The notes: generated by a model not told the origin, from the sequence alone. 64,000 nucleotides of DNA from Candidatus Moraniibacteriota bacterium (GCA_030645735.1 JAUSNP010000006.1:196095-260094), one strand, 5' to 3'; shown: positions 1,815-42,848, counted from the first letter of the stretch. Program-made: numbers and translations.

Positions 1815-1855
1815 ATACGCTACTTTGAATTGTATATCATATAAAAAGATACACT

Positions 1856-1886
1856 AAAAAAAATCGGAGCTTAGCTCCGATTTTTA
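1856..1886. terminator. bidirectional rho-independent terminator (metK / GT4 convergent)
   Basis: A-run, hairpin TCGGAGC-tta-GCTCCGA, T-run. Confidence 0.7.
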
Positions 1887-3029: not shown

Positions 3030-3035
3030 ACCGAA

Positions 3036-4007
3036 TTAACCTAAATATTTTTTCAAAAATTTTATTGGAGAAAATAACATAAACTGCAATTTAGATTTGA
3101 TTTCATTGTTATCAGAGATATGCCATGCCTTTGAATAATCAATTTCTGATTTATTATTTTTCAACCTATTCTCATTAGCTTTTTTGTTGGCAAATTTCAT
3201 CGCTTCTGTATACGGAGTTTGCTTCAAAAAAAACACCATCTTTTTATAAAAATTTGCCTCATTTCCCTCCAGTCTTCTTTTTGTTTCCATTGGCAATTCC
3301 TGCATCATCTTGATCCATAAAGCGTTACCTTCAACAACAACTTTTGGACTTATACTGGAAGCTTGAGATTTATGAACTCTATATTTGGCCAACACCGCTG
3401 GGAGATGAATGAACTTATATGTTTTCATCATTTCAAACCACTTTGCATAATCCTGAGTACATTTCAATTTCTCATCAAAAAAACCATATTGATCAAAAGC
3501 CTTCTTTGGTATTAGCAATGTGTTGCCATTTATGTGGCCATGAAACAAGGCATACTCGGGTTTGGACATCAGCATCTTATGATCCAATCTCATTGTTTTT
3601 ATTTTCCTTGCATTTTCATCTATGAATTCAAAATCTGAATATAATATAACATTCCTATCTTTCAGGGTTGCTAGAATTTCTATCTGCTTTTCAAGCCTAT
3701 TAGGCAAAAACAAATCATCATGGCTAAGCCACGAAAAATATTCGCCTTTCATTTCTTTGAGAGCTAAATTCAAAGCCGAAGATACTCCACCATTTTCCTT
3801 GGCAAAGTATCTAATTTTATCCCCATAAGATTTAGCGATTTTTTCCGTATCATCAGTTGATCCATCATTAACAATAATAGTCTCAATATTAACATATGTC
3901 TGAGCAGAAACGCTTTCTATGGCTTCCCTTAAATAATTAGCACCATTAAAAACTGGTATAATTATGGAAACTAATGGGTTAAATTTTTGATTATTAGATT
4001 GCAACAT
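3036..4007 (-). CDS. glycosyltransferase family 2
   Basis: N-terminal VSIIIPVFNGANYLREAIESVSAQTY..IVNDGSTDDT GT2/GT-A signature (DXD region). Confidence 0.85.
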   Translation of the reverse strand: MLQSNNQKFNPLVSIIIPVFNGANYLREAIESVSAQTYVNIETIIVNDGSTDDTEKIAKSYGDKIRYFAKENGGVSSALNLALKEMKGEYFSWLSHDDLFLPNRLEKQIEILATLKDRNVILYSDFEFIDENARKIKTMRLDHKMLMSKPEYALFHGHINGNTLLIPKKAFDQYGFFDEKLKCTQDYAKWFEMMKTYKFIHLPAVLAKYRVHKSQASSISPKVVVEGNALWIKMMQELPMETKRRLEGNEANFYKKMVFFLKQTPYTEAMKFANKKANENRLKNNKSEIDYSKAWHISDNNEIKSKLQFMLFSPIKFLKKYLG

Positions 4008-5155: not shown

Positions 5156-7606
5156 TTATTTCATTCCTATTTTCTTAAGATACTTTTTTATTTTATTGCC
5201 ATAACGAACTGCCCTGCAACTTGCTAATCTATCGTAAGTCATTTGCACATGCTGATACTGTAACTGCAACTGTTTTTTCTCATCTTGCAAATTATTGTTT
5301 TCTTTTTGCAATTGCGCTTTCTCAGATTGCAATACTATATTATCAGGACTATGCAATTTGCTTAAAATCAATTCTCGCTCTAAAAGTTCCACCTTATTGC
5401 AATCAGGCTTAGTTATTTTTAAACTATTGATTAAAAATTTTAGAGACTTTTCTTTTTCAATATCCAAGATTTTATGCACCATATTATAATCAATCAATTC
5501 TTTATAAATATCCAAATTTGTAATATCATCTATGCTTTTTAGAAACCTATTTTTAATATTTAAGGTAGTCAGTAAACTTTCAAGTCTATTATTTCCAGCA
5601 TAATCTCTAGCAATAACAATAAATTGCTTTTTGAATATGATTGCAAATATTACGCAATGATAGGAATCGGTTATGACAAATTCGCTATTCTTAATATAGT
5701 TCAACCAATGGGAAACACTATGATATACAAATCTTTTTTTACCAAATATTTCTTTTTCTATGCCTCTAATGTTCAAGAGGTTGCCATTCATTTTTTCAAT
5801 AACATTGGTCACGAATGGATTTATTTTTATAGCCTCTTCCAATTTTTCATCTAAGCTAAAATATGCTATATATTTTTCGGTGTGCTCCTCGATAATATCA
5901 TCATTTATTATTTCCTGATATCCACTCTCGTCTATTAGAAAAGTTGGATCTAACACGCATTGCGCATCAAAACCAAAAATATTTTTGCAAATATCAACAC
6001 CTTCTTTTTCACGTACAGATATCGCTGAAAAATTCGTTAGTGCATCCTTAACTTTTTTTATCTCATCAATTGTTCCTTTCCAATGGGTCTCAGCAAAGCT
6101 GGGTGCATAGGAAAAGATATTTTTTGAAGGAAAGACAAAATTTAAAAAATATTTTCCAATATCATTCTTAAATACATTACTTAGATAATTATAATTCCAG
6201 ACTTGATCACTGCCGACTACAAAAGTATCAAATTGCTCGTTCAATTTAACCAAATCATTATCGGTCTTGCATACATGTGTCGTTTTGATAAAATTTTCTC
6301 TAAATTTATAAAATCCTATCGCGCATAATTTATCCTCCTTGCTTTCAGGAATTTCAGAAATATAATTAATTATTTTTGCAGTATAGCCAAGATTTTCAAT
6401 ACTTTTCCACAATGCAAATGCCTGCAATGTTGCACCAAAATTACGGCTAGGGAGTCGCATATTGAAAATTCCCACGCAATTTTTCACTTTATCACCTTCA
6501 TTATTCAGATGCTTGGATATCAAATCTCCAATATTACCATCATGCATCAATAATTCTTCAAAAAATTCTTCTCTCTTGGGATGTTTATCGCATGGCAGAC
6601 TCAATGCAAGATTCCCCTGATGAGCTATAGCAAGAGGAACCTTCTCTGCGATTATTTTAGTTTTTATTTCATTAAAAACAGATTCCCCTTTTGCGCTATT
6701 TACTAAAATCAATGAGGTGCCTTTATCATCATCCAATTCATTCTTATAACTACCTATGGCCCAAAAATCCCCCAATGTTATATCTGATTGCCTCGGAAGT
6801 GTCGCAAATGGACAATTGGTACATAGAGGTTTAAGATATAAATTCCCCAAAAATCCTCTTCCAAAGACATCACCATTATTCATTATTTCTTTATGGATTG
6901 TATTATTATTTTCATCATTCATTGAAAAACTGTATGTTTTCCATCCCGTTGATTTGTCTCGAAATTCTATTTTTCTAACCCTTTCGCCAGTTAACTTCTC
7001 AACATCTTTCATATATTTATCAAAAACCAATGGCGAAGGAGTGCCATGACACATCACATCAACAGTGACCAATTTCTCATAATCTTCCTGCAAAAAAGCA
7101 CAAAGTCCAGCAACCTGGCATGGGGTTCCCACAAACAAAACCCAGTTATCCTCTTGGAGCAGTTTTTTGATGTCCAAAAATATGTCGCCAATTTCACTTT
7201 GTAGATACTTTGAGCCTCGCAATTTAGGCAAATCATTCTCGTCAGCTATTATTACATGTCTCAGTTTGTTATCAGCATCAAATCCAGCTCCACAAACAAA
7301 ACCATTCTTACTGAAAATATATTTCGCGATAATGGAAAATAGACCTCCTGACGAAGAATTTTTCCTAATAAACTCATCCTTACTCCACCCAGCATAGCAG
7401 GCAGGATCTGCACTTTGATTTTTTTTGATGTATTTATTGAGAACAGGGCAGGTTTTTCTGCATAAATTACAACTTGTGCATTTTACTTCATCGATAATAG
7501 GATACAAAAAACCTTCAATGTCTTTCTGCATTGAGATTGCTCCACTTGGACAAACACTATAGCAAGCGCTACATCCAGAACATTTATTTTTTGGAACTAT
7601 TTGCAT
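5156..7606 (-). CDS. fusion protein: 2x[4Fe-4S] ferredoxin + FrhB/FdhB-like (F420 hydrogenase beta-like) domain + polysaccharide pyruvyl transferase-like domain + C-terminal coiled coil
   Basis: N-term CSGCSACYSVCPSGAI...CTSCNLCRKTCPV (two Cx2Cx2Cx3CP); FrhB-like domains are known partners of CsaB/WcaK-type pyruvyl transferases in polysaccharide loci; last ~70 aa heptad-rich (ELLERELILSKL...LQKENNNLQDEKKQLQLQYQHVQ). Confidence 0.55.
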   Translation of the reverse strand: MQIVPKNKCSGCSACYSVCPSGAISMQKDIEGFLYPIIDEVKCTSCNLCRKTCPVLNKYIKKNQSADPACYAGWSKDEFIRKNSSSGGLFSIIAKYIFSKNGFVCGAGFDADNKLRHVIIADENDLPKLRGSKYLQSEIGDIFLDIKKLLQEDNWVLFVGTPCQVAGLCAFLQEDYEKLVTVDVMCHGTPSPLVFDKYMKDVEKLTGERVRKIEFRDKSTGWKTYSFSMNDENNNTIHKEIMNNGDVFGRGFLGNLYLKPLCTNCPFATLPRQSDITLGDFWAIGSYKNELDDDKGTSLILVNSAKGESVFNEIKTKIIAEKVPLAIAHQGNLALSLPCDKHPKREEFFEELLMHDGNIGDLISKHLNNEGDKVKNCVGIFNMRLPSRNFGATLQAFALWKSIENLGYTAKIINYISEIPESKEDKLCAIGFYKFRENFIKTTHVCKTDNDLVKLNEQFDTFVVGSDQVWNYNYLSNVFKNDIGKYFLNFVFPSKNIFSYAPSFAETHWKGTIDEIKKVKDALTNFSAISVREKEGVDICKNIFGFDAQCVLDPTFLIDESGYQEIINDDIIEEHTEKYIAYFSLDEKLEEAIKINPFVTNVIEKMNGNLLNIRGIEKEIFGKKRFVYHSVSHWLNYIKNSEFVITDSYHCVIFAIIFKKQFIVIARDYAGNNRLESLLTTLNIKNRFLKSIDDITNLDIYKELIDYNMVHKILDIEKEKSLKFLINSLKITKPDCNKVELLERELILSKLHSPDNIVLQSEKAQLQKENNNLQDEKKQLQLQYQHVQMTYDRLASCRAVRYGNKIKKYLKKIGMK

Positions 7607-20308: not shown

Positions 20309-23300
20309 TTAATACTTAATTTCGACTATGCCTTGTTTGGTTGTTAGCTCAGGAACAATCAACCCTACCAACTTCTGTTTGATTGCTCGCCTATCAGCAT
20401 CATCGTCATCATCCCTGTCATCATGCAATTCTTGCGGTCTAGTCATAATCATTGTGACATTTTGCTTTGGTCGATAGTGTGATTCGATGGCACTAGAAGA
20501 TGTGCGCAGATTAGTGGCGAACATCGAATATGTCGCGCCCTTTCTATTTAAGCTCCAGTTGTACTTTGCCATTGTATCATGAAGCTTGGTCACCACGCCA
20601 TTATAGCTAATTGAATTTAGCTCAACAGCCACCCTGCGATCATGGCTTACGAATTTTTCTGTATATTTGAGAATTGTGACATTTCCTGCTTGATCAGTGA
20701 TTGTGGCTGTGGTCATTTTGCCAACATATCTCTCATTTTCTCTTTCTCTGTCGCTATACTTTGAATTCTTTTTGGATATTGCGGAGGTGACATAAGTCAC
20801 TGTGGTTGGATTTTCGTCAATGCCTTCAACTCTCATTGAATTGGTCTGAGTGTCAAAAAATATTCTGGCTTCTGGCGGGGTTTGATCTGCTGTGGGTTGC
20901 ATGACTGTTTCGCCGACTTTCGGTTGCAAAGAAAAATCAATGACGCTGTTTCCATCAAAGTCCACTGCCAATGGTGAGGCATTTTGAATTGTCCCATCAA
21001 TCACTTCCATAGTAACCTTGGCCTTGTCAGAAGAAGGAACTCCGGCAAAAGTTGTTTTGGCCACCACCGCGTCATTTTCCACCTCTTGCATCTCCAAGGT
21101 AAATGAACCTTCGGCCAAGCCGTCCAGCGTCACTGTGTGCGCCACAGAGGCTGACAAAGAGATGAATTGCACTTCGCCAAAGCGTTTGTATATTGCCCCA
21201 GGAATGGTCGAAACTGAAGCACTGATTTCATTGCCAGAGGTGTCATGAGCTGACAGTGCCAAAGGTGAATGCAAGATATAATGCAAACGCTTTTCGGAAC
21301 TATTTGATGGTTTTGAATCTGAAATAAATTGAGGAAAAGATGTTGATGATTGAGTTAAAATATTATCTTTAATAAAACTTCGTAATTCTGAAACTTCTAG
21401 AATATCCGCATGCTCTATGCTTCTGACAACGGGAATATTATAATCATCCAAATCTACCCAATACCTCTTCACATTTTCATTTGCACTCATCGCCAACGCA
21501 CTTGGCGCCACCACTGTACCATCGCCATCAATCACTGTGTCCGGAGTATATTGAATCTTGTCCCGATATGCGAGACATTTGCCTTCAAACACCTCCGAAC
21601 ATTCGATGCCTGTCCAATATTTGATTGTTCCAAGCGTCTCTTCGCCAAAACCAGCGATTTGATAAACAGAAATTGATGCTGGCACTGTCCAATTGTCATC
21701 TAGTGCTTGATGCACATCTTCAGCATTACCTAACAGTTTTGCATTGATTGAACTTGGACTGACAACATCATTTGAATCAGCTGAAACTTTTCTTTCAGAA
21801 TCCAAAAGGAAATCATGCAATTCAGTTGGGTTGTCGATTTCATTGCCATATTTATTGATGAAAGATTGCGTAAGTGATCCATTTTCAAATGAAATCATTG
21901 GTGTGCTCGTTGAACTGCCATTTCCATTGAAATATGCGCTTGATGGCAAAAGATTGTATGCGCTTGGCATGTTATTAGCTAATGTTCGAGCAACTTTTGG
22001 AGCAAGCAGCAAGGGAAACCAATCTGCAGGCAAGCCTTGATCATAGCCATGCAAGATTCCACCAATTGCTTGTGGCGTTCCGACTTGTGGCACGGCCACC
22101 ATAACAATCTTGTCAATCAGACTCTCAGCCTCTGCTCCCAATTTGTTGGTCAACGCTTTTGCCAACAGCCCACCATTGGAATGCGCTACGATGGTCACTT
22201 TGCCAGTTTTGGAAGTTTCCGCCAATCGTCTCAACTCACGCACAATGTATGGCGAGATTGACGCTTGGGTATAAGAAATATTTTTCCCATCAAATGTTCC
22301 AGAAGTCAAAATATCTTCCAGTGACAATCGCCAATCATATGGCATAGCCACATAATCATTGATAATTTTGTCATCATTTTTCCATTTTTCCAAATCAGCC
22401 TTAAATGAATTGTAAATATTTTTTTGCCCAATGAGTGGCGATACATTCACCTCATCCAAAACATCTCTTGTATAAACATCTGGATCTAGACTTTTGCCGT
22501 TTTTATCTAGAAATAATTTTTCCACATCCGCATCGCGATTAGGTTCCCAAAGTTGATTCTCTGTTCCAATCACTCCATCAGTATACAACCGACTCGCCTC
22601 CAATCCTGGCAAGAAAAGGACGTTGGATGCGCCACTGGCTGTTACTGATGGCACAGAATTTTCAATTTCTGTGGCGCTCCAACTTTCTGAAGTATAGTCG
22701 CCAATTAGTTTTTCTCCGCCTACATTTGGCGCGGATTCAATTTCAGGTCCGGCTGGATCGCCGTACCAATTGCTTTTCAAAAGAACTTTGGTTTTGTCAT
22801 GAAAGCTCGGGTCACTGCCTGCGACATTGGTGCAATATCCACCACAAATCGGACCATAGATTCCATAGTCATCTGGATAATTCAGCTTGCACTCATTGAA
22901 ACAGTTTTCAAAAAGTGCATTATATACATCTGGCTTTGTGACTTTGGCTGTGACAGCCGTGTCTTGAGAATTGTTTTGGAAATTGGAGTTTTCTATGAAC
23001 AAATAACTTTGTGAATTCCATTCGCCATATTCCGTCTCAACTTTTATATCCGCATAGGCATTGTTTTTGAAATCACAGTTGCTCATTTTCACTCGGCCTG
23101 AATAGAGGGTCATAGCTGGAGCAGCCTCATTCACAGGCGCCGCGTAGGCTACTGGAAAAAACATATCCTTGAGGCCGTTATTCATTCCCAAGCCAGGACA
23201 GCTGTCCGTGTCATAGGAAAATTCATCACCCATCTGAGAAAATTCGACAAATTCAAAAATAGATTCTGGATCGTCCACATAATCCCCTGGGGCGCTGAAT

Positions 23301-23686
23301 TCAATCGTGGCGGTTGGCGACATAAAACAACGCGGATTATATGCTCCGCCCTCTTCAAAAGTCAGTGGGATTCCAGCCAATTTGATTTTTTCTTCTTTGG
23401 TGCCTTGAGCAATGACATTTCCACTGATGGACAAGTGACGAAAAGCTAATTGCGTTCCTTTTTCAATAGTCAAAGTCACGCCCCAATTGACATAAATGTT
23501 TCCATAGTTAGATAAATCCGTACTATTGTTCCAAGTGGTGTTTTCACTGATATACAAATCTTCCAATGGCAAAACTTCGCCAGCTACAATATTTTTCGAC
23601 AAAGCCATGAGATCAATCCGCAAAGGACTGATGGCAAAGATAACGATAAAAATTATGACACCCATGTTTTTGATTGTCTTGTGCAT
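20309..23686 (-). CDS. large secreted multidomain protein with LCAT/PGAP1-like alpha/beta-hydrolase (lipase/acyltransferase) domain
   Basis: N-terminal signal/anchor MGVIIFIVIFAISPL; central PYDWRLS motif (LCAT-family hallmark) followed by lipase nucleophile elbow VTIVAHSNGG (A-H-S-x-G as in Bacillus LipA); N-terminal region with beta-helix-like NxxN repeats; acidic DDRDDDDDADRR near C-terminus. Confidence 0.6.
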   Translation of the reverse strand: MHKTIKNMGVIIFIVIFAISPLRIDLMALSKNIVAGEVLPLEDLYISENTTWNNSTDLSNYGNIYVNWGVTLTIEKGTQLAFRHLSISGNVIAQGTKEEKIKLAGIPLTFEEGGAYNPRCFMSPTATIEFSAPGDYVDDPESIFEFVEFSQMGDEFSYDTDSCPGLGMNNGLKDMFFPVAYAAPVNEAAPAMTLYSGRVKMSNCDFKNNAYADIKVETEYGEWNSQSYLFIENSNFQNNSQDTAVTAKVTKPDVYNALFENCFNECKLNYPDDYGIYGPICGGYCTNVAGSDPSFHDKTKVLLKSNWYGDPAGPEIESAPNVGGEKLIGDYTSESWSATEIENSVPSVTASGASNVLFLPGLEASRLYTDGVIGTENQLWEPNRDADVEKLFLDKNGKSLDPDVYTRDVLDEVNVSPLIGQKNIYNSFKADLEKWKNDDKIINDYVAMPYDWRLSLEDILTSGTFDGKNISYTQASISPYIVRELRRLAETSKTGKVTIVAHSNGGLLAKALTNKLGAEAESLIDKIVMVAVPQVGTPQAIGGILHGYDQGLPADWFPLLLAPKVARTLANNMPSAYNLLPSSAYFNGNGSSTSTPMISFENGSLTQSFINKYGNEIDNPTELHDFLLDSERKVSADSNDVVSPSSINAKLLGNAEDVHQALDDNWTVPASISVYQIAGFGEETLGTIKYWTGIECSEVFEGKCLAYRDKIQYTPDTVIDGDGTVVAPSALAMSANENVKRYWVDLDDYNIPVVRSIEHADILEVSELRSFIKDNILTQSSTSFPQFISDSKPSNSSEKRLHYILHSPLALSAHDTSGNEISASVSTIPGAIYKRFGEVQFISLSASVAHTVTLDGLAEGSFTLEMQEVENDAVVAKTTFAGVPSSDKAKVTMEVIDGTIQNASPLAVDFDGNSVIDFSLQPKVGETVMQPTADQTPPEARIFFDTQTNSMRVEGIDENPTTVTYVTSAISKKNSKYSDRERENERYVGKMTTATITDQAGNVTILKYTEKFVSHDRRVAVELNSISYNGVVTKLHDTMAKYNWSLNRKGATYSMFATNLRTSSSAIESHYRPKQNVTMIMTRPQELHDDRDDDDDADRRAIKQKLVGLIVPELTTKQGIVEIKY

Positions 23687-23949: not shown

Positions 23950-24774
23950 CTAGATGTCCTCCGCGATCCGTGGAGCCATTTTTCGGTAGGACCAGATGCT
24001 GAAGGCGAAAGCGCCGAGCACGATGGAGATAAAGGCAGTGTATTGAGTGGAGCTGGCGAAGTGATTATTAATCAAAGATTCTTTGGTGAAGTGGATGATG
24101 AAGGCCAAAGGATTGAGCAGAATCAATGTGTGATATTTAACTGGCAAAGTTACTAAAGGATAGATGATGGGTGAAGCATACATGATGATCATGAGAAGCA
24201 CTTCCCAAATCATGGAAAGGTCACGGAATTTCACGTAGAGTGGTGCCGTTATCAGAGCAAAAGACAGGATTATAATATAAATGAAAACTGAGAACAGCAG
24301 AAATACGCCAATGGCAGCAAGACTTGGCATGAAACCCTTGAGAGCGAAAAAGAAAACAATCACGACTAGATTCATTAGGAATATCAAGGTGGCGTTGATA
24401 GTGGAAGCCAAAATGATGGTCCAACGCGGAACATAAATTTTGGTCACCAATTGTGATTTGCTCAACAGCGAATTCATGCCGGCACCGGTACCCTCAGCAA
24501 AAAAATAGAACATCATCAAAGAAACCAAAAGTTGCAAAGAATAGGTATCTGTTCCATCGACATTTCTTAGATTGAAAACTGAAGAGAAAACAAAATTCAA
24601 AATCGCAAAAGTCAAAAGCGGTTTCAAAAGCGCCCATAAATAGCCCAAAACACTGCCATGATAGCGCAGTTTGAAATCGGTTTTGGCTAGCATCCAAATT
24701 AGCTCTTTGTAATTCTCATGTTGTCTCATATAGAAGTCCATAAAGTCCGTAAAGCTTAAAGTCCATAAAGCCAT
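23950..24774 (-). CDS. wzm: polysaccharide ABC exporter permease (ABC-2 family) Wzm/TagG-like
   Basis: YKELIWMLAKTDFKLRYHGSVLGYLWALLKPLL ABC-2 signature start, 6 TM; first ~14 codons overlap the decamer repeat array so true start may be at a downstream Met. Confidence 0.8.
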   Translation of the reverse strand: MALWTLSFTDFMDFYMRQHENYKELIWMLAKTDFKLRYHGSVLGYLWALLKPLLTFAILNFVFSSVFNLRNVDGTDTYSLQLLVSLMMFYFFAEGTGAGMNSLLSKSQLVTKIYVPRWTIILASTINATLIFLMNLVVIVFFFALKGFMPSLAAIGVFLLFSVFIYIIILSFALITAPLYVKFRDLSMIWEVLLMIIMYASPIIYPLVTLPVKYHTLILLNPLAFIIHFTKESLINNHFASSTQYTAFISIVLGAFAFSIWSYRKMAPRIAEDI

Positions 24775-24833: not shown

Positions 24834-25178
24834 TTTGATAAAACCAGAAAGCATCTTAGAAATTTCAAATGATAAATTATATAATCTTGTGAATTCCTCC
24901 TCTTTAATATAGCCTAGATCCAAAGATAGATAAAGCATGGAACGAACCTCGCCACACGAGCCCTTGGCAATAAATAAAAAGTGTTTAAATTCTTTATCAC
25001 CTTTTCTCTCAAACCCCTCAGCGATATTGTTCATCACCGAAACTGCCGCTCTTTGAATTTGGTCTCTAAAAGAAAAGTCCCTATTCAATTTAAAAATATT
25101 ATAGATATCCAAAGTGAGCATGCGCGACTTTTGCCAAGCAATAATATCCTCAAATTTTTCTATTTTTATATTTTGCAT
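24819..25178 (-). CDS. four-helix-bundle protein (TIGR02436 / 23S rRNA intervening-sequence protein family; Avd-like fold)
   Basis: AWQKSRMLTLDIYNI...FRDQIQRAAVSVMNNIAEGFERKGDKEFKHFLFIAKGSCGEV matches the family consensus. Confidence 0.8.
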   Translation of the reverse strand: MQNIKIEKFEDIIAWQKSRMLTLDIYNIFKLNRDFSFRDQIQRAAVSVMNNIAEGFERKGDKEFKHFLFIAKGSCGEVRSMLYLSLDLGYIKEEEFTRLYNLSFEISKMLSGFIKKLDQ

Positions 25179-25182
25179 TGAT

Positions 25183-25222
25183 AGACTTTATGAACCTTAT
25201 GGACTTGATGGACTTTTGACTG
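25183..25222. repeat. decamer array C
   Basis: GACTTTATGAACCTTATGGACTTGATGGACTTTTGAC. Confidence 0.6.
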
Positions 25223-25224
25223 TC

Positions 25225-26298
25225 TTATACATTATCCATTGTTTTGTACCACTCTGGCATCATTTGAAAGACTTCAACTTGCCTTCTAACACCTTCTTCC
25301 ATATTCATTTTTGGCTCATAGCCTAGCATCTCCCTGGCCTTGCTAATATCAGCCGAAGAAACTACATCTCCTTTGTCACTTTCTACTAGTTTATATTTCA
25401 CCGGAGTACCCAAAACCTTGCCAATGATATCCAGCCAAAGTCTGATCGGCTGCGGATCAGATGTTCCAATATTGAACACATCAAATTTCGTCTTGTGATC
25501 TAGGAGTAATAACAAACCATCTACCTGATCATCGATATAAGTGCTGTCTTTAGCTGTGTCTAATCCCTTGCTACCATAAATAGAAATTTCTTTCCCATTG
25601 TAGGCAAAATTGATGGCGCGTTGCATGAACATGCCATACATTCTTTGCAATGGTCCATAAATTGGTCCGAAAATTCGGTCCACACACACATCCAATCCAT
25701 ATACCACCGAAGCTGCGTGGCACAAAACCTCTCCGGAAACTTTCGTGGCGCCATAAGGAGAAACGGCATGCATCACATCATCAGTTTCTGAAACTTTTTT
25801 GTCATCGCGATTGCCATAGACCGATGAAGATCCACCGAATACAAATTTCTTGGTGCCAAAATTTCGGCAGGCATCCAGCAAGGTCACCGTTCCCACCACA
25901 TTAACATTGGCATAGGTCACTGGTTTTTGTACTGACATCGGCACGCCACCCCAAGCCGCCAAATGAATGACAGCATCAATGCCTTCAGTCCTAAACATTT
26001 CATTCACCTTTTCCGCATCCGTAATGTCCATTTCATAGAATTTGAAGCTTCCAAGCTTGCCAGTTGGTTTCGGATAGTAACTTTCCATCTTTTCAAAAAC
26101 ATTTTGGATTTCATCCAATGGAGTTTCAATCGGCAAGCCAGCTAAAATATTTATCAAATCAACATTAAATTGCTTGCAGCGTCTTGGATAATATTCGTTG
26201 AAATTGTCGATACCCACTACATCATCTCCACGGCGAATCAATGCTCGTGAAACATAGTTGCCGATAAAACCTGCTGCACCCGTGACTAATACTTTCAT
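25225..26298 (-). CDS. NAD-dependent nucleotide-sugar epimerase (UDP-glucuronate/UDP-hexose 4-epimerase-like)
   Basis: MKVLVTGAAGFIGNYVSRALIRRGDDVVGIDNFNEYY Rossmann/extended SDR start, YGATK catalytic motif; ~55-aa insertion after the first beta-alpha unit. Confidence 0.75.
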   Translation of the reverse strand: MKVLVTGAAGFIGNYVSRALIRRGDDVVGIDNFNEYYPRRCKQFNVDLINILAGLPIETPLDEIQNVFEKMESYYPKPTGKLGSFKFYEMDITDAEKVNEMFRTEGIDAVIHLAAWGGVPMSVQKPVTYANVNVVGTVTLLDACRNFGTKKFVFGGSSSVYGNRDDKKVSETDDVMHAVSPYGATKVSGEVLCHAASVVYGLDVCVDRIFGPIYGPLQRMYGMFMQRAINFAYNGKEISIYGSKGLDTAKDSTYIDDQVDGLLLLLDHKTKFDVFNIGTSDPQPIRLWLDIIGKVLGTPVKYKLVESDKGDVVSSADISKAREMLGYEPKMNMEEGVRRQVEVFQMMPEWYKTMDNV

Positions 26299-26307
26299 AT
26301 AAATTTT

Positions 26308-26392
26308 AGTTCATAAAGTTCGTAAAGTTAAAGGTTCGTAAAGTGTCGACTTTAAAAAACCTTATAAACTTGATGAACTTTATAACTTCGAT
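26308..26392. repeat. decamer array D (palindromic: AAAGTTC arm / GAACTTT arm)
   Basis: AGTTCATAAAGTTCGTAAAGTTAAAGGTTCGTAAAGTGTCGACTTT...CTTGATGAACTTTATAACTTCG. Confidence 0.7.
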
Positions 26393-27567
26393 CTTAAATA
26401 ATTATAATATTCTTCGTTATGACTATTTTTGTTGGTGTATTTTTCTATGGTTTTTTCTTGAGCTTTTTTGCCAATTTCTTCTCGAAGATTAGCATCGACA
26501 ACCAACTTTTCCAATTTTTCAACCCATTCAGCCGTTGTTTTTGCTACATAGCCGTCAATTCCATCAGCGATAGCCTCAGAAAATGTCTGGTTGGCCACGG
26601 CCACGGTCGGCACACCTAGAATTCCAGCTTCAAAAAATTTCAATTCCGATTTGGCTTCACAAAATGGATCACCTGGTTCAAGTGGAGCTAGATTGATATC
26701 CACTTTGCTAATATTTTCCAAGTGTTTCTCCCAAGGCGCCAAGGGAAATTGTTCAATTCGATCTTGAAATTTGTTCAGAGCATTTTCAACTTCCAGTGGC
26801 CCCACCAATACAAGTCTGACTTGCGGATATTTCTCCATAATTATCATCAACGCCTCCGTGATTGTAGCAAAATCTTTATTGTGGCTCATTGTGCCAGAAA
26901 AATAACCTATGCGTATCTTTTTTTGGTTTTTGGTTTTTGGTTTTTGGTTTTTATGAATATTTTCTGCCACAGTCACATCATATTCGGTGAGTTTATTGGG
27001 CACAATAAAAACCTTCTTGCCATAACTTTCCAAAACTTTCGCCAAATAGGTTGTCGTGGTGGTGCAAACTTTTACATAATCATCCCTCAAAATTTCTTCG
27101 CCCACACCTTTTGCATATTGTTTCTTTTCAAAGAAACTCATTTTTTTATACATATCTGTGGCGTGCATATATTTCGTATCAAAAACCAAATCATCTGTTT
27201 CAAAGATAATTTCCTTGCCTTGTTTTTTCACTCGCTCCAACAATTTCTTGACGGTCGGGGTGACGAGGGTGCGATGAAAAACAAAAACCTTAAACTTACT
27301 GGCAAACAATGCCAGAAATGGATTGTCTTGAATCATCACTTCAGCCTTGATGCCATGAAAATTCAATTCCTCGGCAACTTTGTAGGCTCGATATTTCGCG
27401 CTATCACCTACACCGCCTGTAATAAACAACACATCGCCAGATTTAAAAGTGGATATTGTTTTCAAAAATGTTGCAAAATAATTCAACACGCGACGACCGC
27501 CTACCAGGATTCCATCTCTTCTAATCGCAGTAAAGGCCTTGCCGATTTTGATTAAAAATAAATTCAT
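26380..27567 (-). CDS. glycosyltransferase family 1 (GT4) carrying an in-frame (CCAAAAA)4 heptamer tract
   Basis: GT4 C-terminal LAPLEPGDPFCEAKSELKFFEAGILGVPTVAV; heptamer tract at 26918-26952 encodes KNQKPKTKNQKK; ATG at 27567 preferred (MNLFLIKIGKAF). Confidence 0.75.
   Translation of the reverse strand: MNLFLIKIGKAFTAIRRDGILVGGRRVLNYFATFLKTISTFKSGDVLFITGGVGDSAKYRAYKVAEELNFHGIKAEVMIQDNPFLALFASKFKVFVFHRTLVTPTVKKLLERVKKQGKEIIFETDDLVFDTKYMHATDMYKKMSFFEKKQYAKGVGEEILRDDYVKVCTTTTTYLAKVLESYGKKVFIVPNKLTEYDVTVAENIHKNQKPKTKNQKKIRIGYFSGTMSHNKDFATITEALMIIMEKYPQVRLVLVGPLEVENALNKFQDRIEQFPLAPWEKHLENISKVDINLAPLEPGDPFCEAKSELKFFEAGILGVPTVAVANQTFSEAIADGIDGYVAKTTAEWVEKLEKLVVDANLREEIGKKAQEKTIEKYTNKNSHNEEYYNYLRSKL
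26918..26952. repeat. heptanucleotide tandem repeat (TTTTTGG)4 inside coding sequence
   Basis: GG dinucleotides at 26925, 26932, 26939, 26946 with period 7. Confidence 0.85.
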
Positions 27568-27576
27568 AAAAATTTT

Positions 27577-27670
27577 AGTCCGTAAAGTCTGAAAGTTCTT
27601 AAAGTCGAAAGCTAACAATGCTTTATGGACTTTATGAACTTTATGGACTTTTGGACTTAGTCGACTTTTA
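27577..27670. repeat. decamer array E (palindromic)
   Basis: AGTCCGTAAAGTCTGAAAGTTCTTAAAGTCGAAAGC-taacaatg-CTTTATGGACTTTATGAACTTTATGGACTTTTGGACTTAGTCGACTTT. Confidence 0.75.
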
Positions 27671-28843
27671 ATTTGTTATCTTTTTATAAATCTCATTTAT
27701 CTTTTCCGCCGAAGCTTCCCAGCTGAAATCCACGGCGCGCTTTTTGTTGTTGGCGCCTTTTTCCTGCGCTTCTTGTGGATTTTGCGCAAAATGCAAAATG
27801 CCTTTTGCAATGCCAGCAGCCGTTGATTCACAGAAATAACCGCCGTCATCCAAATATTTGCGATTATTATCTTTGTCAAAACATACCACCGGCAAACCCG
27901 CTGACATATAATTGAGCATCTTGCCACTGGCTTGATTGGTGTCCGTGTCTTTGGGATCCACTGCCACATCGGCCACGCAATTGAATTTCGGCAATTCAAA
28001 ATAGTTCAAAGGACTCACCACGCGAACAAATTTTTCCAATTGATTTTCTTTGACAAATTCTCTCACATGTTGATCTGGAAAACCGCCAATCAGGAAAAAC
28101 ACATTCGGATTTTGTTCCACTGTCGGCTTGATGGCTGCAAAAAGATGAGCGACGCCTTTGTTGGGCACCAAACCGCCAGAATATACAACCACAAACTTGT
28201 CTTCTGGAATTTCCATTTCTCTGCGCAACTCGCTCTTGCTTTGTTTCAAATTAAAACTCGCTAGACTTGTTCCGTCTAGCATCACTTCAGCACCCTCTCC
28301 GCCTCTAGCTGATTTGATTGGCTCCAAGCCCTCCCAAGAACTGACAATCGCCCAATCACCCCGACCATTGATAAATCTTTCAATAATTCTGAAAAGCCAT
28401 TTCAAACCTTTTTTCAAATAACCATGCGAAACCATCTCGCCTGTCAGACTGCCATGAAAATCAGCCACCAATTTGATGTCGCGCCAAAAAAGCAATTTCT
28501 GCACAATCCAGCCAATCAAAACACCTTCGTGCAAATGACCATGAATCACATCCGGTTTTTGCGTACGCGCTAAAAACAGAACTTTTTTAATAAGCGCCAA
28601 ATCCAAAATAATTTTTTGCCAATCTGGACCAGCTTCCAGCTTCTTATACCAAAAAAGTAGTCGCCTGATTCGTCGGACATCAATCTTGGTATCAATTTCA
28701 GCTGGAATGTCCTTGCCGATATGATAGGTGGCGATTGTAATTTGATTGCCCAATTTTTCCAAGGCCAGCGCTTCTTCTAGAATCCGAATGTGGGTTCCGC
28801 GATCAGCAAAAAATGGAGTTGGAGCAACGACTAAAATTTTCAT
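27668..28843 (-). CDS. glycosyltransferase family 1 (GT4)
   Basis: MKILVVAPTPFFADRGTHIRILEEALAL start (ATG 28843); C-term LVPNKGV...GGFPDQ...AGLPVVCFD GT4 features; upstream 43 codons of the ORF track lie in the repeat array. Confidence 0.8.
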   Translation of the reverse strand: MKILVVAPTPFFADRGTHIRILEEALALEKLGNQITIATYHIGKDIPAEIDTKIDVRRIRRLLFWYKKLEAGPDWQKIILDLALIKKVLFLARTQKPDVIHGHLHEGVLIGWIVQKLLFWRDIKLVADFHGSLTGEMVSHGYLKKGLKWLFRIIERFINGRGDWAIVSSWEGLEPIKSARGGEGAEVMLDGTSLASFNLKQSKSELRREMEIPEDKFVVVYSGGLVPNKGVAHLFAAIKPTVEQNPNVFFLIGGFPDQHVREFVKENQLEKFVRVVSPLNYFELPKFNCVADVAVDPKDTDTNQASGKMLNYMSAGLPVVCFDKDNNRKYLDDGGYFCESTAAGIAKGILHFAQNPQEAQEKGANNKKRAVDFSWEASAEKINEIYKKITN

Positions 28844-28935
28844 AAAGTTTATAAAATTCTTAAAGTTTATACGGTCAAAAGAGTACGGAATCCAACACTT
28901 TACGAACTTGGTGGACTTTATGAACTTTTGACTCT
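28841..28935. repeat. decamer array F
   Basis: CATAAAGTTTATAAAATTCTTAAAGTTTATACGGTCAAAAG...CTTTACGAACTTGGTGGACTTTATGAACTTTTGACTC. Confidence 0.65.
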
Positions 28936-28965
28936 GCCAACTAATTCTACCCCATAAATTCTCGT

Positions 28966-30807
28966 TTGGCAAAAGGCTGTTTAGGCTATATAATTACACC
29001 AATGATCAAATTTAAAATACCCGAGGTAAATTTAGATAAATTCCAGCTATTCACGGCTTTTGTCCTTTTTTGGATAGGCTTGGGATGGCTTGGCTTGGCC
29101 CTTTCACTTTTAGGGATTTTTTATAATGCAATTTTAGTTAGTTATATCCTCTTGGGTATTATATTCCTAGCTTATTTGATCAATTTCAATCAGACCAAGA
29201 TTGCCATCAATTTTCGTTTTTTTCTGATTTTCATCCTAACCTTGATTTCGATTTTCATTTTCTCATTCTATACTACGCCGACCATCTTTTCCGGACGCGA
29301 CCAAGGCTCACTCAGTGAAGCTGCTATCCGCCTGGCGCAAAATCATCATTTGTCTTTTGCTTCAGTTGCTTCCCAAGAATTTTTCAAAATCTATGGCGCT
29401 GGACCAGCATTGAATTTCCCTGGCTTTCATTATACTGCGCAGGGCAACCTTTCCACACAATTTCCGCTGGGCTACATTTCTTGGTTAGCAATTTTCTATT
29501 CCCTGATAGGTCTCAATGGTTTCGTGCTGGCCAACAGCATCACCTTTGCCATTTTTATTTTTTCTTTCTACCTAGTCGCCCGCTATTATTTGCGCGCCTC
29601 TTCAGCCATCATGGCAACTCTTCTGATTTTAAGCTCTTTTATTTTTGCTTGGTTTTTCAAATTCACGCTCAGTGAAAACCTCGCGATGATGCTGACTTGG
29701 TTTGGAATCTATGAGTTCGTGCTGTTTACTAAAAATAAGTCGCGTTTTTATCTTCTAGCGTCTTTGACCGCTTTCACTCTGCTTGTTTTCACTCGCGTAG
29801 AGGCTTTGGGATTTTTGGCGGTCGTCACTGCAATGCTACTCATCAAATACAAAGATTGGAAATATCTATTCTTTGTTGTAATTGGCAAAAAAATTCTGCT
29901 CGTTGCTGGCGGGTTTTTAGTATTATATTTTTTCAACTTGGCACTTGATAGCTCATCATATTATTCAATGTTGAAAGGCATCCTCAGTCCGTTCATTTCT
30001 CTGGGCTCTGGACTTAAAGATTATTCGTCAGCAGATTCTGTGCCATTTTTGGCCACCTCCTTTTATGTGCTCAAAGTTTTCTCAGCCTACGCGCTGTTCA
30101 ATTTCTTGCTATTTGGCATCATCGGATTTATTTATTTATGGCGCCACAAAAAATTTGAAATTTTGGTGCCATTTCTGATTATCCTGCCAACCTTTGCCTA
30201 CATCATACACCCCAGCATTTCAGCTGATCATCCTTGGATGTTGCGCCGCTTTGTTTTTTCCATCATTCCCGTCAGCATTCTTTATGCCGTTTGGTTTTTT
30301 GATCACTTCTTCAAGAAAAGAATGTATTTCTATTTTGTTATAGTCCTGCTCATTGCCACCAACCTGATGGTTTTTGTGCCCTTTCTGACAATCTCGCCCG
30401 ACAAAAATCTGTTGCCACAAATTGAAAAAATTTCCGAAAACTTTGTTGAATCAGACTTGATTTTAGTTGATCGCGATGCCACCGGTGATGGTTGGTCAAT
30501 GATGACTGGGCCGTTGAATTTCTTGTTCGACAAACAAGCAGTCTATTTTTTCAATCCCAAAGATTTGGCAAAGATTGATCAGAAAAAATTCAGTGCCATC
30601 TATTTCATCATTCCTGACAACAAATTAGACTTCTACCGTCAAGGCGGAATTTTGCAAAGACTAGTGCCTGTTCAAGATTATTCAATTGAAAACAAAATGC
30701 TCAGCCTGAAGACCGGCGAGAAACAAGAAATGTTTAGCGCGCCAATCGAGTTGCCAAAAATGCAAGATAACGCAGTTTATGGTAAAATTTATTTATTAAA
30801 AAACTAG
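28966..30807 (+). CDS. polytopic membrane protein (~12 TM + C-terminal soluble domain), putative GT-C-fold glycosyltransferase or O-antigen ligase-like
   Basis: Hydrophobicity pattern; first extracytoplasmic loop with SGRDQGS acidic motif; C-terminal ~200-aa non-membrane domain; alternative ATG at 29002. Confidence 0.35.
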   Translation: MAKGCLGYIITPMIKFKIPEVNLDKFQLFTAFVLFWIGLGWLGLALSLLGIFYNAILVSYILLGIIFLAYLINFNQTKIAINFRFFLIFILTLISIFIFSFYTTPTIFSGRDQGSLSEAAIRLAQNHHLSFASVASQEFFKIYGAGPALNFPGFHYTAQGNLSTQFPLGYISWLAIFYSLIGLNGFVLANSITFAIFIFSFYLVARYYLRASSAIMATLLILSSFIFAWFFKFTLSENLAMMLTWFGIYEFVLFTKNKSRFYLLASLTAFTLLVFTRVEALGFLAVVTAMLLIKYKDWKYLFFVVIGKKILLVAGGFLVLYFFNLALDSSSYYSMLKGILSPFISLGSGLKDYSSADSVPFLATSFYVLKVFSAYALFNFLLFGIIGFIYLWRHKKFEILVPFLIILPTFAYIIHPSISADHPWMLRRFVFSIIPVSILYAVWFFDHFFKKRMYFYFVIVLLIATNLMVFVPFLTISPDKNLLPQIEKISENFVESDLILVDRDATGDGWSMMTGPLNFLFDKQAVYFFNPKDLAKIDQKKFSAIYFIIPDNKLDFYRQGGILQRLVPVQDYSIENKMLSLKTGEKQEMFSAPIELPKMQDNAVYGKIYLLKN

Positions 30808-30813
30808 GAGATT

Positions 30814-30896
30814 AGTCAAAAGTCCATCAAGTCAATAAAGTCCGTAAAGTTATAGGAACTTTCGACTTTACGGACTTTGGACTTTACGGACTTTGA
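30814..30896. repeat. decamer array G (palindromic)
   Basis: GTCAAAAGTCCATCAAGTCAATAAAGTCCGTAAAGTTATAGGAACTTTCGACTTTACGGACTTTGGACTTTACGGACTTTGAAC. Confidence 0.75.
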
Positions 30897-32236
30897 ACAT
30901 TATGACTCTGGATTTAACCGCTCACATCAAACTCGACAAAAAAAATCTTCGACTCTACCGCATCCTGCAGGTTATTTTTTATTTATCCGCCATTTCTTTG
31001 GCAACCTATTTTGCTATCCGCATTCTTTTTCCAACCTCCTATTTCATATTTGATTTTAACAAGCCCTTTGCCAAAAGCAACAATATTTATGATATGCATG
31101 ATAACACCAAGCTTGTGCCCGGAAAAGGAATATTGCCCGCCAATGCAACTTTGAATTTCAATGCTTCTCTCTTTGATTTCTTTTCTAAAGCGCTAGTGAC
31201 TTTTTCCCTGGATAAAAAATCCGCACCACTTCAATCTGGTTCAGTTCTGGTTAAAAAATCTTTTCGAGCTTTTCTCTATCCAGATGGAGCCATCATGGGC
31301 TTCAAGGATGGCACGCTCCTCAAAAGCGAAGGAAATTATTATATAGTTTTTAATGGCAAGATGCATAAGTTTGCCAAGCCGAATTTGGTGACTGAACTGG
31401 GTTATGCGCCAGAAGCTTTTCGAGAGGTCACACCAATTGAAATCAATTATAACAAAAAAGGTGATTCCATCACCAAAGCGCAATATCCCAACAAAACTTT
31501 TTTTAGAGTTAATGATGAATATTATTTATTGCAAAGCGAACACTTACAAAAATTTATCAGCGCCAACGCTTTCCTCAGCCAATATGATTCCAATCAAGCC
31601 ATCGTGAAAGATACCAGCTTTCTATCAACCTTCAAGCCGTCGAATAATTTGATTGGTTTTGCCGATGGCTCGATCCTGTCATATGGTGACACAATTTATA
31701 TTACTAACGGTAAAAATATTCTGCCCGTCGATAGTCCTGAAACCTTTCTTAGCAAGGGCTATGCCTGGGAAGATGTCATTCCAGTCAGTCCGGAAGAAAT
31801 CGCCCTCTATGTCAAAGAGAAAAATTTCACCATAGCCAGCTTGCATTCCAACGGTACAATTTTCAAGACCAGCGAAAGTGGCAATCATTATTTGATTCAA
31901 GATGGCAAAAAAAGACTCTTGCCTTCAACCAATGTCGTGGCTTCCTGGCTCAAGAAAAATCCAATCATGGTTTCACGCGATAGTCTCAGTCTGACAAATT
32001 CCTGCCTGCTCAAAAAAGACGCGCTCAGCGCCAATTCATATTCCTGTGAAATTCCAATTGCCAATATGCAAAATTTGCTTGGCAGTGACTATGAATTTTT
32101 TGCCAAATCAAGCTCTGCCATTCAAATCGATACTGTCAACATTGAATTCAAAAAAGATGTCACCCGCGACAATTTATTGCTAACTCTCAGCCGCATATTT
32201 AATCGCGTAAAAAACAATTATGTTCCCACAAATTAA
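30893..32236 (+). CDS. membrane-anchored (single N-terminal TM) hypothetical extracytoplasmic protein
   Basis: TM LQVIFYLSAISLATYFAIRILF then 400-aa soluble region; no recognisable motifs. Confidence 0.4.
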   Translation: MNIMTLDLTAHIKLDKKNLRLYRILQVIFYLSAISLATYFAIRILFPTSYFIFDFNKPFAKSNNIYDMHDNTKLVPGKGILPANATLNFNASLFDFFSKALVTFSLDKKSAPLQSGSVLVKKSFRAFLYPDGAIMGFKDGTLLKSEGNYYIVFNGKMHKFAKPNLVTELGYAPEAFREVTPIEINYNKKGDSITKAQYPNKTFFRVNDEYYLLQSEHLQKFISANAFLSQYDSNQAIVKDTSFLSTFKPSNNLIGFADGSILSYGDTIYITNGKNILPVDSPETFLSKGYAWEDVIPVSPEEIALYVKEKNFTIASLHSNGTIFKTSESGNHYLIQDGKKRLLPSTNVVASWLKKNPIMVSRDSLSLTNSCLLKKDALSANSYSCEIPIANMQNLLGSDYEFFAKSSSAIQIDTVNIEFKKDVTRDNLLLTLSRIFNRVKNNYVPTN

Positions 32237-32624
32237 ATTCAGTGCCGGACCAAAAGTAGTCATTCTATACAAACTTCTCAATGATAGTCTATTGGTTATG
32301 CTAACATTTTTCATGCTTACCCTGCTGGCTGAAGGTGCATTGCCAGGAATCATTTCCTCCCACATTGGACTCTACAAAATTGTAATTGCCATTCTTGTGA
32401 ATATTTTAGCTATCACAGCGATTGGAAAAATCATCAAGGCGCCTGAAAACGCAACCAACAAAAAAATAGTAGAGACGCGATTAATCGCGTCTCTACTTAT
32501 CATCTGCGCGCTATTGCTTTTCAACAGTCTGCTCAAGCTCAATATATACTTGAATATTTTTATTCTAATCACACTCTTTGTGATTAGCTATTTTTTGATT
32601 AGAGTTTTTCAAGAAGAAAAATAA
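32220..32624 (+). CDS. small membrane protein (3-4 TM), hypothetical
   Basis: hydrophobic segments; overlaps end of preceding gene by 17 nt. Confidence 0.3.
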   Translation: MFPQIKFSAGPKVVILYKLLNDSLLVMLTFFMLTLLAEGALPGIISSHIGLYKIVIAILVNILAITAIGKIIKAPENATNKKIVETRLIASLLIICALLLFNSLLKLNIYLNIFILITLFVISYFLIRVFQEEK

Positions 32625-32704
32625 GTCCATAAAGTCTTTAAAGTCAAAAGTCCGAAAGCACTGGAGCTTTTGACTTTATGGACTTGACGGACTTTAAGGA
32701 CTCT
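32624..32704. repeat. decamer array H (palindromic)
   Basis: AAGTCCATAAAGTCTTTAAAGTCAAAAGTCCGAAAGCactggaGCTTTTGACTTTATGGACTTGACGGACTTTAAGGACTC. Confidence 0.75.
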
Positions 32705-42764: not shown

Positions 42765-42848
42765 AGTCTATAAAGCTGAAAGTCTATAAAGTCTATAAAG
42801 CATTTTGCTTGACGGACTTGATGGACTTTACGACTTTATGGACTCTGC
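42765..42848. repeat. decamer array I (palindromic)
   Basis: CTATAAAGCTGAAAGTCTATAAAGTCTATAAAGC-attttgc-TTGACGGACTTGATGGACTTTACGACTTTATGGACTC. Confidence 0.75.

Follow-up and report, generated by a model that had tools for sequence, protein, structure and literature searches.

In a 64,000-nucleotide (nt) stretch of DNA from a Candidatus Moraniibacteriota bacterium (GCA_030645735.1, JAUSNP010000006.1:196095-260094; the whole analysed stretch is henceforth called the window), a perfect heptanucleotide tract lies in the middle of a predicted glycosyltransferase gene within a surface-glycan island. The tract is probably a short coding microsatellite of the "mutable" class that was born by slippage in a tolerant interdomain loop of the enzyme, and not an adaptive switch. 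An earlier note, made from the sequence alone, had taken it for a candidate slipped-strand phase-variation switch; of this proposal, the frameshifting repeat in mid-gene, the loss of the C-terminal domain upon frameshifting, and the setting in a surface-glycan island stood, whereas the switching role found no support in the tests that were run.

The (TTTTTGG)4 repeat itself, with its coding sequence on the minus strand, was as the earlier note had described it, according to the sequence, Tandem Repeats Finder, and shuffling (positions of all features are listed in Table 1). Tandem Repeats Finder delimited the array to 26920-26952 (33 nt, period 7, 4.7 copies, 100% matches, score 66). As a null model, 200 dinucleotide-preserving shuffles of the 64-kb window were used with the longest perfect period-7 array as the statistic; this array had a mean length of 15.5 nt and a maximum of 21 nt in the shuffled windows compared to 33 nt in the real one, and the longest arrays with periods of 4-6, 8, and 9 were inside the shuffle range. 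An exhaustive scan of the window for simple sequence repeats (SSRs; perfect arrays with a unit of 2-9 nt and a minimum of 3 copies and 14 nt) returned, besides the heptamer tract, a single (ATTT)3.5 array at 30126 and nothing else, and no homopolymer in the window exceeded 9 A/T or 6 G/C. The tract is the sole above-chance simple repeat of the window. Since its 33 nt surpass the shuffle maximum and the SSR scan was otherwise empty of comparable arrays, the repeat is regarded as real, non-random, and unique within the 64 kb.

Based on sequence profiles and a structural model, the tract-bearing gene is predicted to encode a glycosyltransferase of the GT-B fold and CAZy GT4 type. In a Pfam search, residues 222-381 of the product (395 amino acids, aa) matched Glycos_transf_1 (PF00534, E-value 1.3e-11) as well as Glyco_trans_1_4 and Glyco_trans_1_2 above the gathering scores, with further E-values of 1.3e-09 (PF13692) and 1.2e-07 (PF13524) for the C-terminal domain; the N-terminal domain had no Pfam match in this search. 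An AlphaFold model, calculated with 44 homologues (predicted local distance difference test (pLDDT) 89.7; predicted template modelling score (pTM) 0.86), comprised two Rossmann-like halves of alternating beta and alpha elements. The best Foldseek matches of the model were BshA, PimA/PimB', MshA, TarM, PglA, and TreT (E-values 2e-12 to 1e-10, probability 1.00), to which, as solved GT4 enzymes, the protein has a sequence identity of only 11-16%. The product is identical to P0001, deposited as 'glycosyltransferase [Candidatus Moranbacteria bacterium]' from a metagenome-assembled genome (MAG; contig of 329,606 bp), and a 412-aa open reading frame (ORF) starting with TTG is this gene with a mechanical extension at its 5' end. 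As a conserved and syntenic core gene, it has 60-75% identity across Moranbacteria and Parcubacteria, and its family has more than 3,288 members.

According to the AlphaFold model, a helix (residues 195-207) is followed by a coil (208-217) and by the first strand of the C-terminal domain (218-223, IRIGYF); the tract codes for the end of this helix and for the coil that joins the two Rossmann domains. The two 10-residue blocks spanning residues 201-220 had pLDDT values of 84 and 72, the minimum of the model apart from the N-terminal helix. Among the homologues (44 aligned, 120 inspected), this linker is by far the most variable segment of the family in both length and sequence, ranging from the consensus length up to in-frame insertions of about 26 residues with unrelated sequences, and its flanks are near invariant (VFIVPNKL... 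and ...IGYFSGT.SHNKDF). Judged by alignment and model together, the tract thus sits at the enzyme's one place where length and sequence are essentially free.

The consequences of slippage were simulated by adding units to or removing them from the 395-aa ORF and translating to the next stop. Loss or gain of one unit gave products of 217 and 232 aa, respectively, and loss or gain of two units gave 225 and 224 aa, while changes by three units kept the frame (388 or 402 aa). Every product frameshifted by one or two units was devoid of the whole C-terminal donor-binding domain, with the N-terminal Rossmann domain remaining. Because the unit of 7 nt is not a multiple of three, each single-unit slip is predicted to create a null allele and not a length variant. 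The truncation after about 205 of 395 residues that had been claimed for such a change therefore holds in kind, with the stop falling at 217-232 aa and the claimed position being right to within about 10-25 residues.

The periodicity is best explained at the level of DNA. Conditional on the peptide and on how the window's genes use their codons, the probability of a perfect heptamer repeat is P ~7e-4, and such a repeat requires minor codons, namely AAC (23% of Asn codons) twice and ACC (24% of Thr codons); on the grounds of this probability, the periodicity arose in the DNA and not via selection on the peptide. A possible starting point is visible in homologues in which the linker is unexpanded: P0086 reads CAA AAT AAA AAA CCA AAA ACT, that is, AAAAACC AAAAACT, a two-unit seed. 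This seed, AAAAACCAAAAAC (K-P-K-T), is already present in unexpanded homologues, the ancestral linker of the family being ..K-N-K-K-P-K-T.., and many homologues encode ..N-K-(K/Q)-P-K-T.. at this site (P0077, P0007, and P0108 are similar, with N-K-(K/Q)-P-K/R-T; P0007 is the closest relative with an N-K-K-P-R-T linker).

Three lineages, none of which is the nearest relative of another, have heptamer tracts at the same site: the window, a clade of P0061, L009, and P0100, and L007. The allele of P0061 (shared by L002-L006 and L008) reads AAAAACC AAAAACA AAAAACT AAAAACC AAAAACT, i.e., 5 units with 2 substitutions (peptide KNQKQKTKNQKL); L009 (Ga0209048_10003890) has (AAAAACC)3 AAAAACT, i.e., 3.9 perfect units (peptide QKPKTKNQKL); the tract of P0100 amounts to about 2.5 units, and that of L007 to 4 degenerate units. 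With the linker excluded, identities within the clade of P0061, L009, and P0100 are 85-89%, compared to 62-63% between this clade and the window protein; L007 shares about 60% with each of these proteins, and the nearest relatives of each tract-bearing lineage are without a tract. What separates the tract of P0061 from that of L009 is an in-frame indel of 6 nt and not a 7-nt unit. All tract-bearing homologues are intact ORFs and in frame, and two of the tracts are interrupted by substitutions. The P0061 allele was identical in ENA ERZ27249449, SRR6484324, JGI 3300037810, SRR18595301, JGI Ga0172379, and a GenBank MAG, and thus unchanged in at least five contigs from different samples. On these sequence comparisons, the simplest reading of the tract states is a microsatellite life cycle, in which a shared proto-repeat would have expanded in parallel and then decayed by point mutation.

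The following course of events is proposed for the mutable-class microsatellite. An A-rich stretch with codons for Lys, Asn, Gln, Pro, and Thr, which encodes the flexible linker, would be the substrate on which replication slippage acts, and in this Moranbacteria lineage the two-unit seed would have grown to 4.7 perfect units. The expansion would survive since nearly every length and sequence is tolerated in the loop as long as the frame is kept. Once expanded, the tract would slip more often than ordinary DNA, with each one-unit slip producing a null allele and hence an occasional knockout of the gene, so that the tract would be a by-product of mutation and relaxed constraint instead of a selected switch. 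Both the slippage origin and the lack of adaptive switching are what we infer from the data described here. Like ordinary coding microsatellites and interdomain linkers, the tract lies in the least constrained loop, has a proto-repeat in relatives, shows expansion followed by decay, and occurs only in in-frame states; unlike ordinary coding microsatellites, it has a non-triplet unit, a type uncommon among repeats tolerated within genes.

Variant alleles were searched for in several ways. A frame-independent DNA pattern, AAAAACNAAAAACNAAAAAC N{0,30} GGNTAYTTYWSNGG, corresponding to three AAAAACN units no more than 30 nt from the GYFSG codons, was scanned against 185,579 GTDB species genomes and 241 million JGI metagenome records, neither of which contains the window's own genome. 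The scan returned one locus in GTDB and three in JGI, representing the P0061, L009, and L007 loci only, all in frame, and no off-state allele was caught in either collection; so few loci in a family of this size indicate that alleles with a tract are uncommon. An independent Logan assembly of the source run (SRR13727526) was identical to the window along 5,802 nt that include the tract, with no contig break at that place, and the tract thus had the same length in two assemblies of the source sample. Neither a length polymorphism nor an off allele was present among the roughly 10 contigs that carry a tract. A protein search with the N-terminal 205 residues found no truncated allele with at least 90% identity (nothing above 66%), although this search was weak, as its output consisted of shorter proteins only, with P0001 itself missing.

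Three candidates for off alleles from this search were rejected. The homologue L010 (Patescibacteria, ENA ERZ25039524, 402-kb contig, 1286-3685) is split into 199 and 186 aa with the break at the linker, but the region is GC-richer and free of repeats; its neighbouring GT4 gene is also split (337 and 86 aa). These splits are frameshifts in non-repetitive sequence, likely caused by indel errors of long reads or assembly or by gene decay, and not by SSR switching. In L011 and L012, the truncation is at other places of the gene, and no SSR is involved.

Taken against the usual description of a contingency locus, the window thus has an uninterrupted, frame-altering repeat within an ORF. Repeat-number polymorphism with on and off alleles was not seen in the assemblies, the protein collection, or the DNA scan, with one population of this species on record, and several loci of this kind were not seen within the 64 kb: similar tracts in other glycosyltransferase genes, a survey of which the earlier note had suggested for the genome, occurred in 0/6 of those in the window, and all other window genes were likewise without an SSR.

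Several observations weigh against a non-adaptive microsatellite. By analogy with the "mutable" class, we infer a mutation rate of about 1e-7 to 1e-5 per division, but this rate is extrapolated from Proteobacteria, and replication and repair in the Candidate Phyla Radiation (CPR) may differ. A perfect, undecayed 33-nt repeat with a non-triplet unit in a surface-glycan transferase gene has the typical appearance of a contingency locus. A permissive screen takes three or more heptamers as candidates (PMC2651432), and one pentanucleotide has been rated hypermutable from 3 units (PMC4235727 Table 1). The absence of variant alleles carries little weight, with one population of the species on record. 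To judge from the alignments, the recurrence of a tract at one site among three lineages could mean selection for a mutable sequence instead of parallel neutral expansion, and the tracts of the window and P0061 agree at 30/33 nt though the proteins are only 62% identical. For this last similarity, parallel expansion from a shared seed would be a simpler reading than gene conversion or transfer; the codons flanking the tract differ between the window and P0061, and the nearest relatives of each lineage are without a tract.

The chief rival explanation is that the tract is an evolved contingency locus, maintained by selection as a slipped-strand on/off switch of an exported surface glycan that would serve phage evasion or host adaptation. 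We consider this unlikely. A broader version, in which the AAAAACC tract is kept and repeatedly regenerated at the linker in several Parcubacteria and Moranbacteria lineages and acts as a stochastic switch of a surface glycopolymer in what are probably host-attached ultrasmall bacteria, is also improbable. The proposal is attractive in that the repeat is free of mismatches, highly non-random, and built of a non-triplet unit, that a one-unit change is predicted to remove the catalytic C-terminal domain, and that the gene belongs to an island of the Wzm/Wzt type for surface polysaccharides. Moreover, peptide and codon usage do not account for the DNA repeat, and of the same-site tracts in the three lineages that of L009 is also perfect. 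The sister tracts, however, are interrupted by substitutions and stable across samples, which is the opposite of what selection for mutability would produce, and no length polymorphism or off allele accompanies the tract in the contigs that carry one. In addition, the 64 kb hold six more glycosyltransferase genes and no further SSR, the gene is conserved and syntenic instead of accessory, and the tract is located mid-gene in a neutral loop, away from the 5' end.

Comparison with established systems bears on the same question. The lipopolysaccharide glycosyltransferases lic2A, lgtC, and lex2A of Haemophilus influenzae are controlled by tetranucleotide tracts, which usually have at least 10 units, lie near the 5' end, are polymorphic between strains, and occur in genomes with many further contingency loci. 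They share with the tract of the window the principle of slipped-strand mispairing in a glycosyltransferase reading frame with on/off expression, and the window tract differs from them in length, position, polymorphism, and companion loci. Closer in kind is Neisseria pglE, whose repeat unit is CAAACAA. It encodes the pilin-glycan galactosyltransferase and is phase-variable by an intragenic heptanucleotide repeat (PMC7157529), which provides the closest precedent for a contingency locus. Slipped-strand phase variation of glycosyltransferases is a classic mechanism, as the earlier note had stated for heptamer tracts in surface-glycan transferase genes. As in pglE, an A/C-rich 7-nt unit lies inside the ORF of a surface-glycan glycosyltransferase, and a change by one unit switches the frame. 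Unlike the window tract, the pglE repeat varies in number between isolates and during carriage, with on and off alleles confirmed by immunoblot (PMC7157529); the window tract, unlike pglE, has 4.7 units, no length variation or off allele seen, a position in the neutral linker of a core gene, and no other SSR of its kind in 64 kb.

The heptanucleotide tracts of H. influenzae have 13-38 units in the hmw1A/hmw2A promoters, and an (AATTTTG)14 tract inside hmw1a is associated with frameshifts, at a candidate threshold of at least 3 units (PMC2651432). The window tract resembles them in having a heptanucleotide unit in a gene for a surface structure, and the intragenic hmw1a tract in particular in its association with frameshifts. 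The H. influenzae heptanucleotide tracts, unlike that of the window, mostly act on promoters, and the 4.7 units of the window tract barely pass the permissive threshold, which makes the tract a candidate on bioinformatic grounds, and are far below the length of the validated tracts in that study, a point against a contingency locus. The same holds for switching rates, which drop steeply for short tracts: meningococcal Opa pentanucleotide tracts of up to 5 units had a rate of change of 0.007 per month, compared to 0.09-0.16 for longer ones (0.16 for at least 9 units) (PMC7157529). In a classification of SSRs, tetranucleotide tracts with 3-12 units are "mutable" (1e-7 to 1e-5 per division) and those with more than about 10 units "hypermutable", with short tracts having a more than 10-fold lower switching (PMC4235727 Table 1; PMC7157529); a 4-nt repeat of 3-9 units counts as "mutable" and not as "hypermutable" in this table. 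By analogy, 4.7 units would place the tract in the "mutable" class or close to it, among short tracts, which seldom switch.

Within the CPR, a Gracilibacteria (BD1-5) genome has a gene with a hypervariable 9-mer (PTD-coding) repeat (PMC6851277). This system is alike in being a perfect short tandem repeat in a gene of a CPR bacterium for which slipped-strand mispairing is discussed; it is unlike the window tract in that its 9-nt unit is in frame and its array is very long and heterogeneous among reads, so that it varies the length and sequence of the protein instead of switching it on and off. Literature searches on CPR, Patescibacteria, Saccharibacteria, and Parcubacteria found no frameshifting SSR switch, the nearest case being the in-frame Gracilibacteria 9-mer (PMC6851277), and they yielded no repeat-mediated phase variation in Parcubacteria or Moranbacteria, in agreement with the statement of the earlier note that none has been described for this kind of organism.

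Another explanation places selection on the protein: a basic KNQKPKTKNQKK loop would be favoured, e.g., for contact with a membrane or an anionic acceptor, and the periodicity of the DNA would be a side effect. A Lys-rich K-N-x-P-K motif occurs in most homologues with different codons (AAT AAG CAG CCG AAG ACT in P0077), and the window and P0061 have a near-identical 11-residue peptide compared to 62% overall identity, both of which would fit such a preference. The codon choice needed for a perfect repeat, including the minor codons AAC (twice) and ACC, rules out selection on the peptide as the sole cause of the periodicity. Many homologues have entirely different linkers at this site, even acidic or much longer ones, and the confidence of the model is minimal at the linker, consistent with a flexible loop, which leaves this explanation unlikely.

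Very unlikely, in our assessment, is a role of the tract in recoding, by which the in-frame A AAA AAG at the tract end, the slippery heptamer of dnaX, would promote programmed -1 frameshifting or transcriptional slippage and yield a fixed share of truncated N-domain protein. The codons CAA AAA AAG (Q215 K216 K217; 26917-26925, heptamer 26917-26923, minus strand) do present A_AAA_AAG in the correct frame, and the -1 frame stops 15 codons further on, which would give a product of about 232 aa. The 71 nt downstream, however, fold with -9.6 kcal/mol (z = 0.03 versus shuffles) and thus contain no stimulatory structure, no Shine-Dalgarno-like element occurs upstream, a region taken up by the A/C tract itself, and the A run is only 7 nt long. 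The slippery heptamer is also absent in P0061, L009, L007, and P0100, which read CAA AAA CTG or CTA. With neither downstream structure nor conservation, programmed frameshifting at this site was rejected, and the heptamer is probably incidental. An artefact of assembly or sequencing, such as a collapsed or chimeric low-complexity join, has a negligible likelihood: low-complexity repeats are well-known places for metagenome bins to be misassembled, but the Logan assembly agrees with the window across the tract, the ORF is unbroken, more than 100 homologues are colinear with it on either side of the tract, and homologous tracts occur in unrelated samples.

Table 1 Features of the window discussed in the text (positions counted from the first nucleotide of the window)
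Feature	Position	Strand	Remarks
Heptanucleotide tract	26918-26952	coding strand minus	plus strand T7GG(T5GG)3T5 = TT(TTTTTGG)4TTTTT; coding strand (AAAAACC)4AAAAA(AA)
Residues 206-217, KNQKPKTKNQKK, KNQKPKTKNQK(K)	26917-26952	minus	encoded by the tract
Predicted GT-B / GT4-type glycosyltransferase gene	26380-27567	minus	395 aa; ATG at 27567, stop 26380-26382
N-terminal (acceptor-side) Rossmann domain	26953-27567	minus	residues 1-205
C-terminal Glycos_transf_1 (nucleotide-sugar-binding) domain	26383-26916	minus	residues 218-395
Upstream GT4 glycosyltransferase gene	27668-28972	minus	same conserved block
NAD-dependent sugar epimerase/dehydratase gene	25225-26298	minus	downstream
ABC-2 (Wzm-type) polysaccharide exporter permease gene	23950-24774	minus	same block
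Arrays of ~9-nt units	24734-24774, 25178-25215, 26308-26344, 27578-27660, 28897-28928, 30819-30895, 32623-32702, 42765-42844

The glycan island around the tract-bearing gene comprises seven glycosyltransferase genes, a Wzm/Wzt-type ABC exporter, and genes for sugar-nucleotide epimerases/dehydratases, the rhamnose pathway, and acyl- and pyruvyl-transferases. In the distant lineage L002, the GT4 gene, this glycosyltransferase gene, the epimerase gene, and the ABC-2 permease gene follow one another in the same order as in the window. The window additionally carries, inserted between its epimerase and permease genes, a gene for a 119-aa four-helix-bundle '23S rRNA intervening sequence protein' (PF05635; 24819-25178, minus strand), which is absent from the otherwise syntenic block of L002. 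The block of glycosyltransferase, epimerase, and ABC-2 genes is followed by a gene for a 1,125-aa protein with an LCAT / PGAP1-like alpha/beta-hydrolase domain (20309-23686, minus strand), a linkage that is conserved in L002 (6473-7182). Divergently oriented and adjoining the glycosyltransferase genes are two ORFs without a Pfam match on the plus strand (28966-30807, 613 aa; 30893-32236, 447 aa); from its sequence, the 613-aa product looks like a polytopic membrane protein, and both may be membrane proteins resembling glycan polymerases or ligases.

Arrays of units of about 9 nt (AAAGTCCAT, its complement ATGGACTTT, and variants) occur in intergenic regions of the glycan island, often as two inverted arms. 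The spacer upstream of the tract-bearing gene (27570-27668, minus strand) folds into one long hairpin (-30.5 kcal/mol, z = -7.5 versus shuffles). Seen in this window alone, the arrays look like one family of intergenic elements that are periodic and palindromic and may be terminators or resemble repetitive extragenic palindromes (REP-like). Outside of these, an S-adenosylmethionine (SAM) riboswitch (RF00162; 581-706, plus strand, 50 bits, E-value 1.7e-08) was detected upstream of an ORF at 768-1814. At 5156-7606 (minus strand), an 816-aa fusion protein is encoded that combines 4Fe-4S ferredoxin and FrhB/FdhB-like (F420 hydrogenase beta) domains with a polysaccharide pyruvyl transferase; its gene is located within the window's stretch of lowest GC content (0.30 at 4-8 kb versus about 0.39 elsewhere).

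Read as a mutable-class microsatellite in a tolerant loop, the case shows a frameshift-capable repeat arising, expanding in parallel, and decaying in the one length-free loop of an enzyme. It also cautions that a repeat in a glycosyltransferase gene does not by itself imply phase variation. The setting is that of CPR bacteria, with tiny genomes, uncertain repair capacity, and an episymbiotic life. Should the tract be a true contingency locus after all, the CPR would have its first reported case of slipped-strand phase variation; the block of GT4, glycosyltransferase, epimerase, and ABC-exporter genes would be a target of fluctuating selection by phages or host recognition, and CPR bacteria would share with host-adapted pathogens the strategy of varying their surface through contingency loci.

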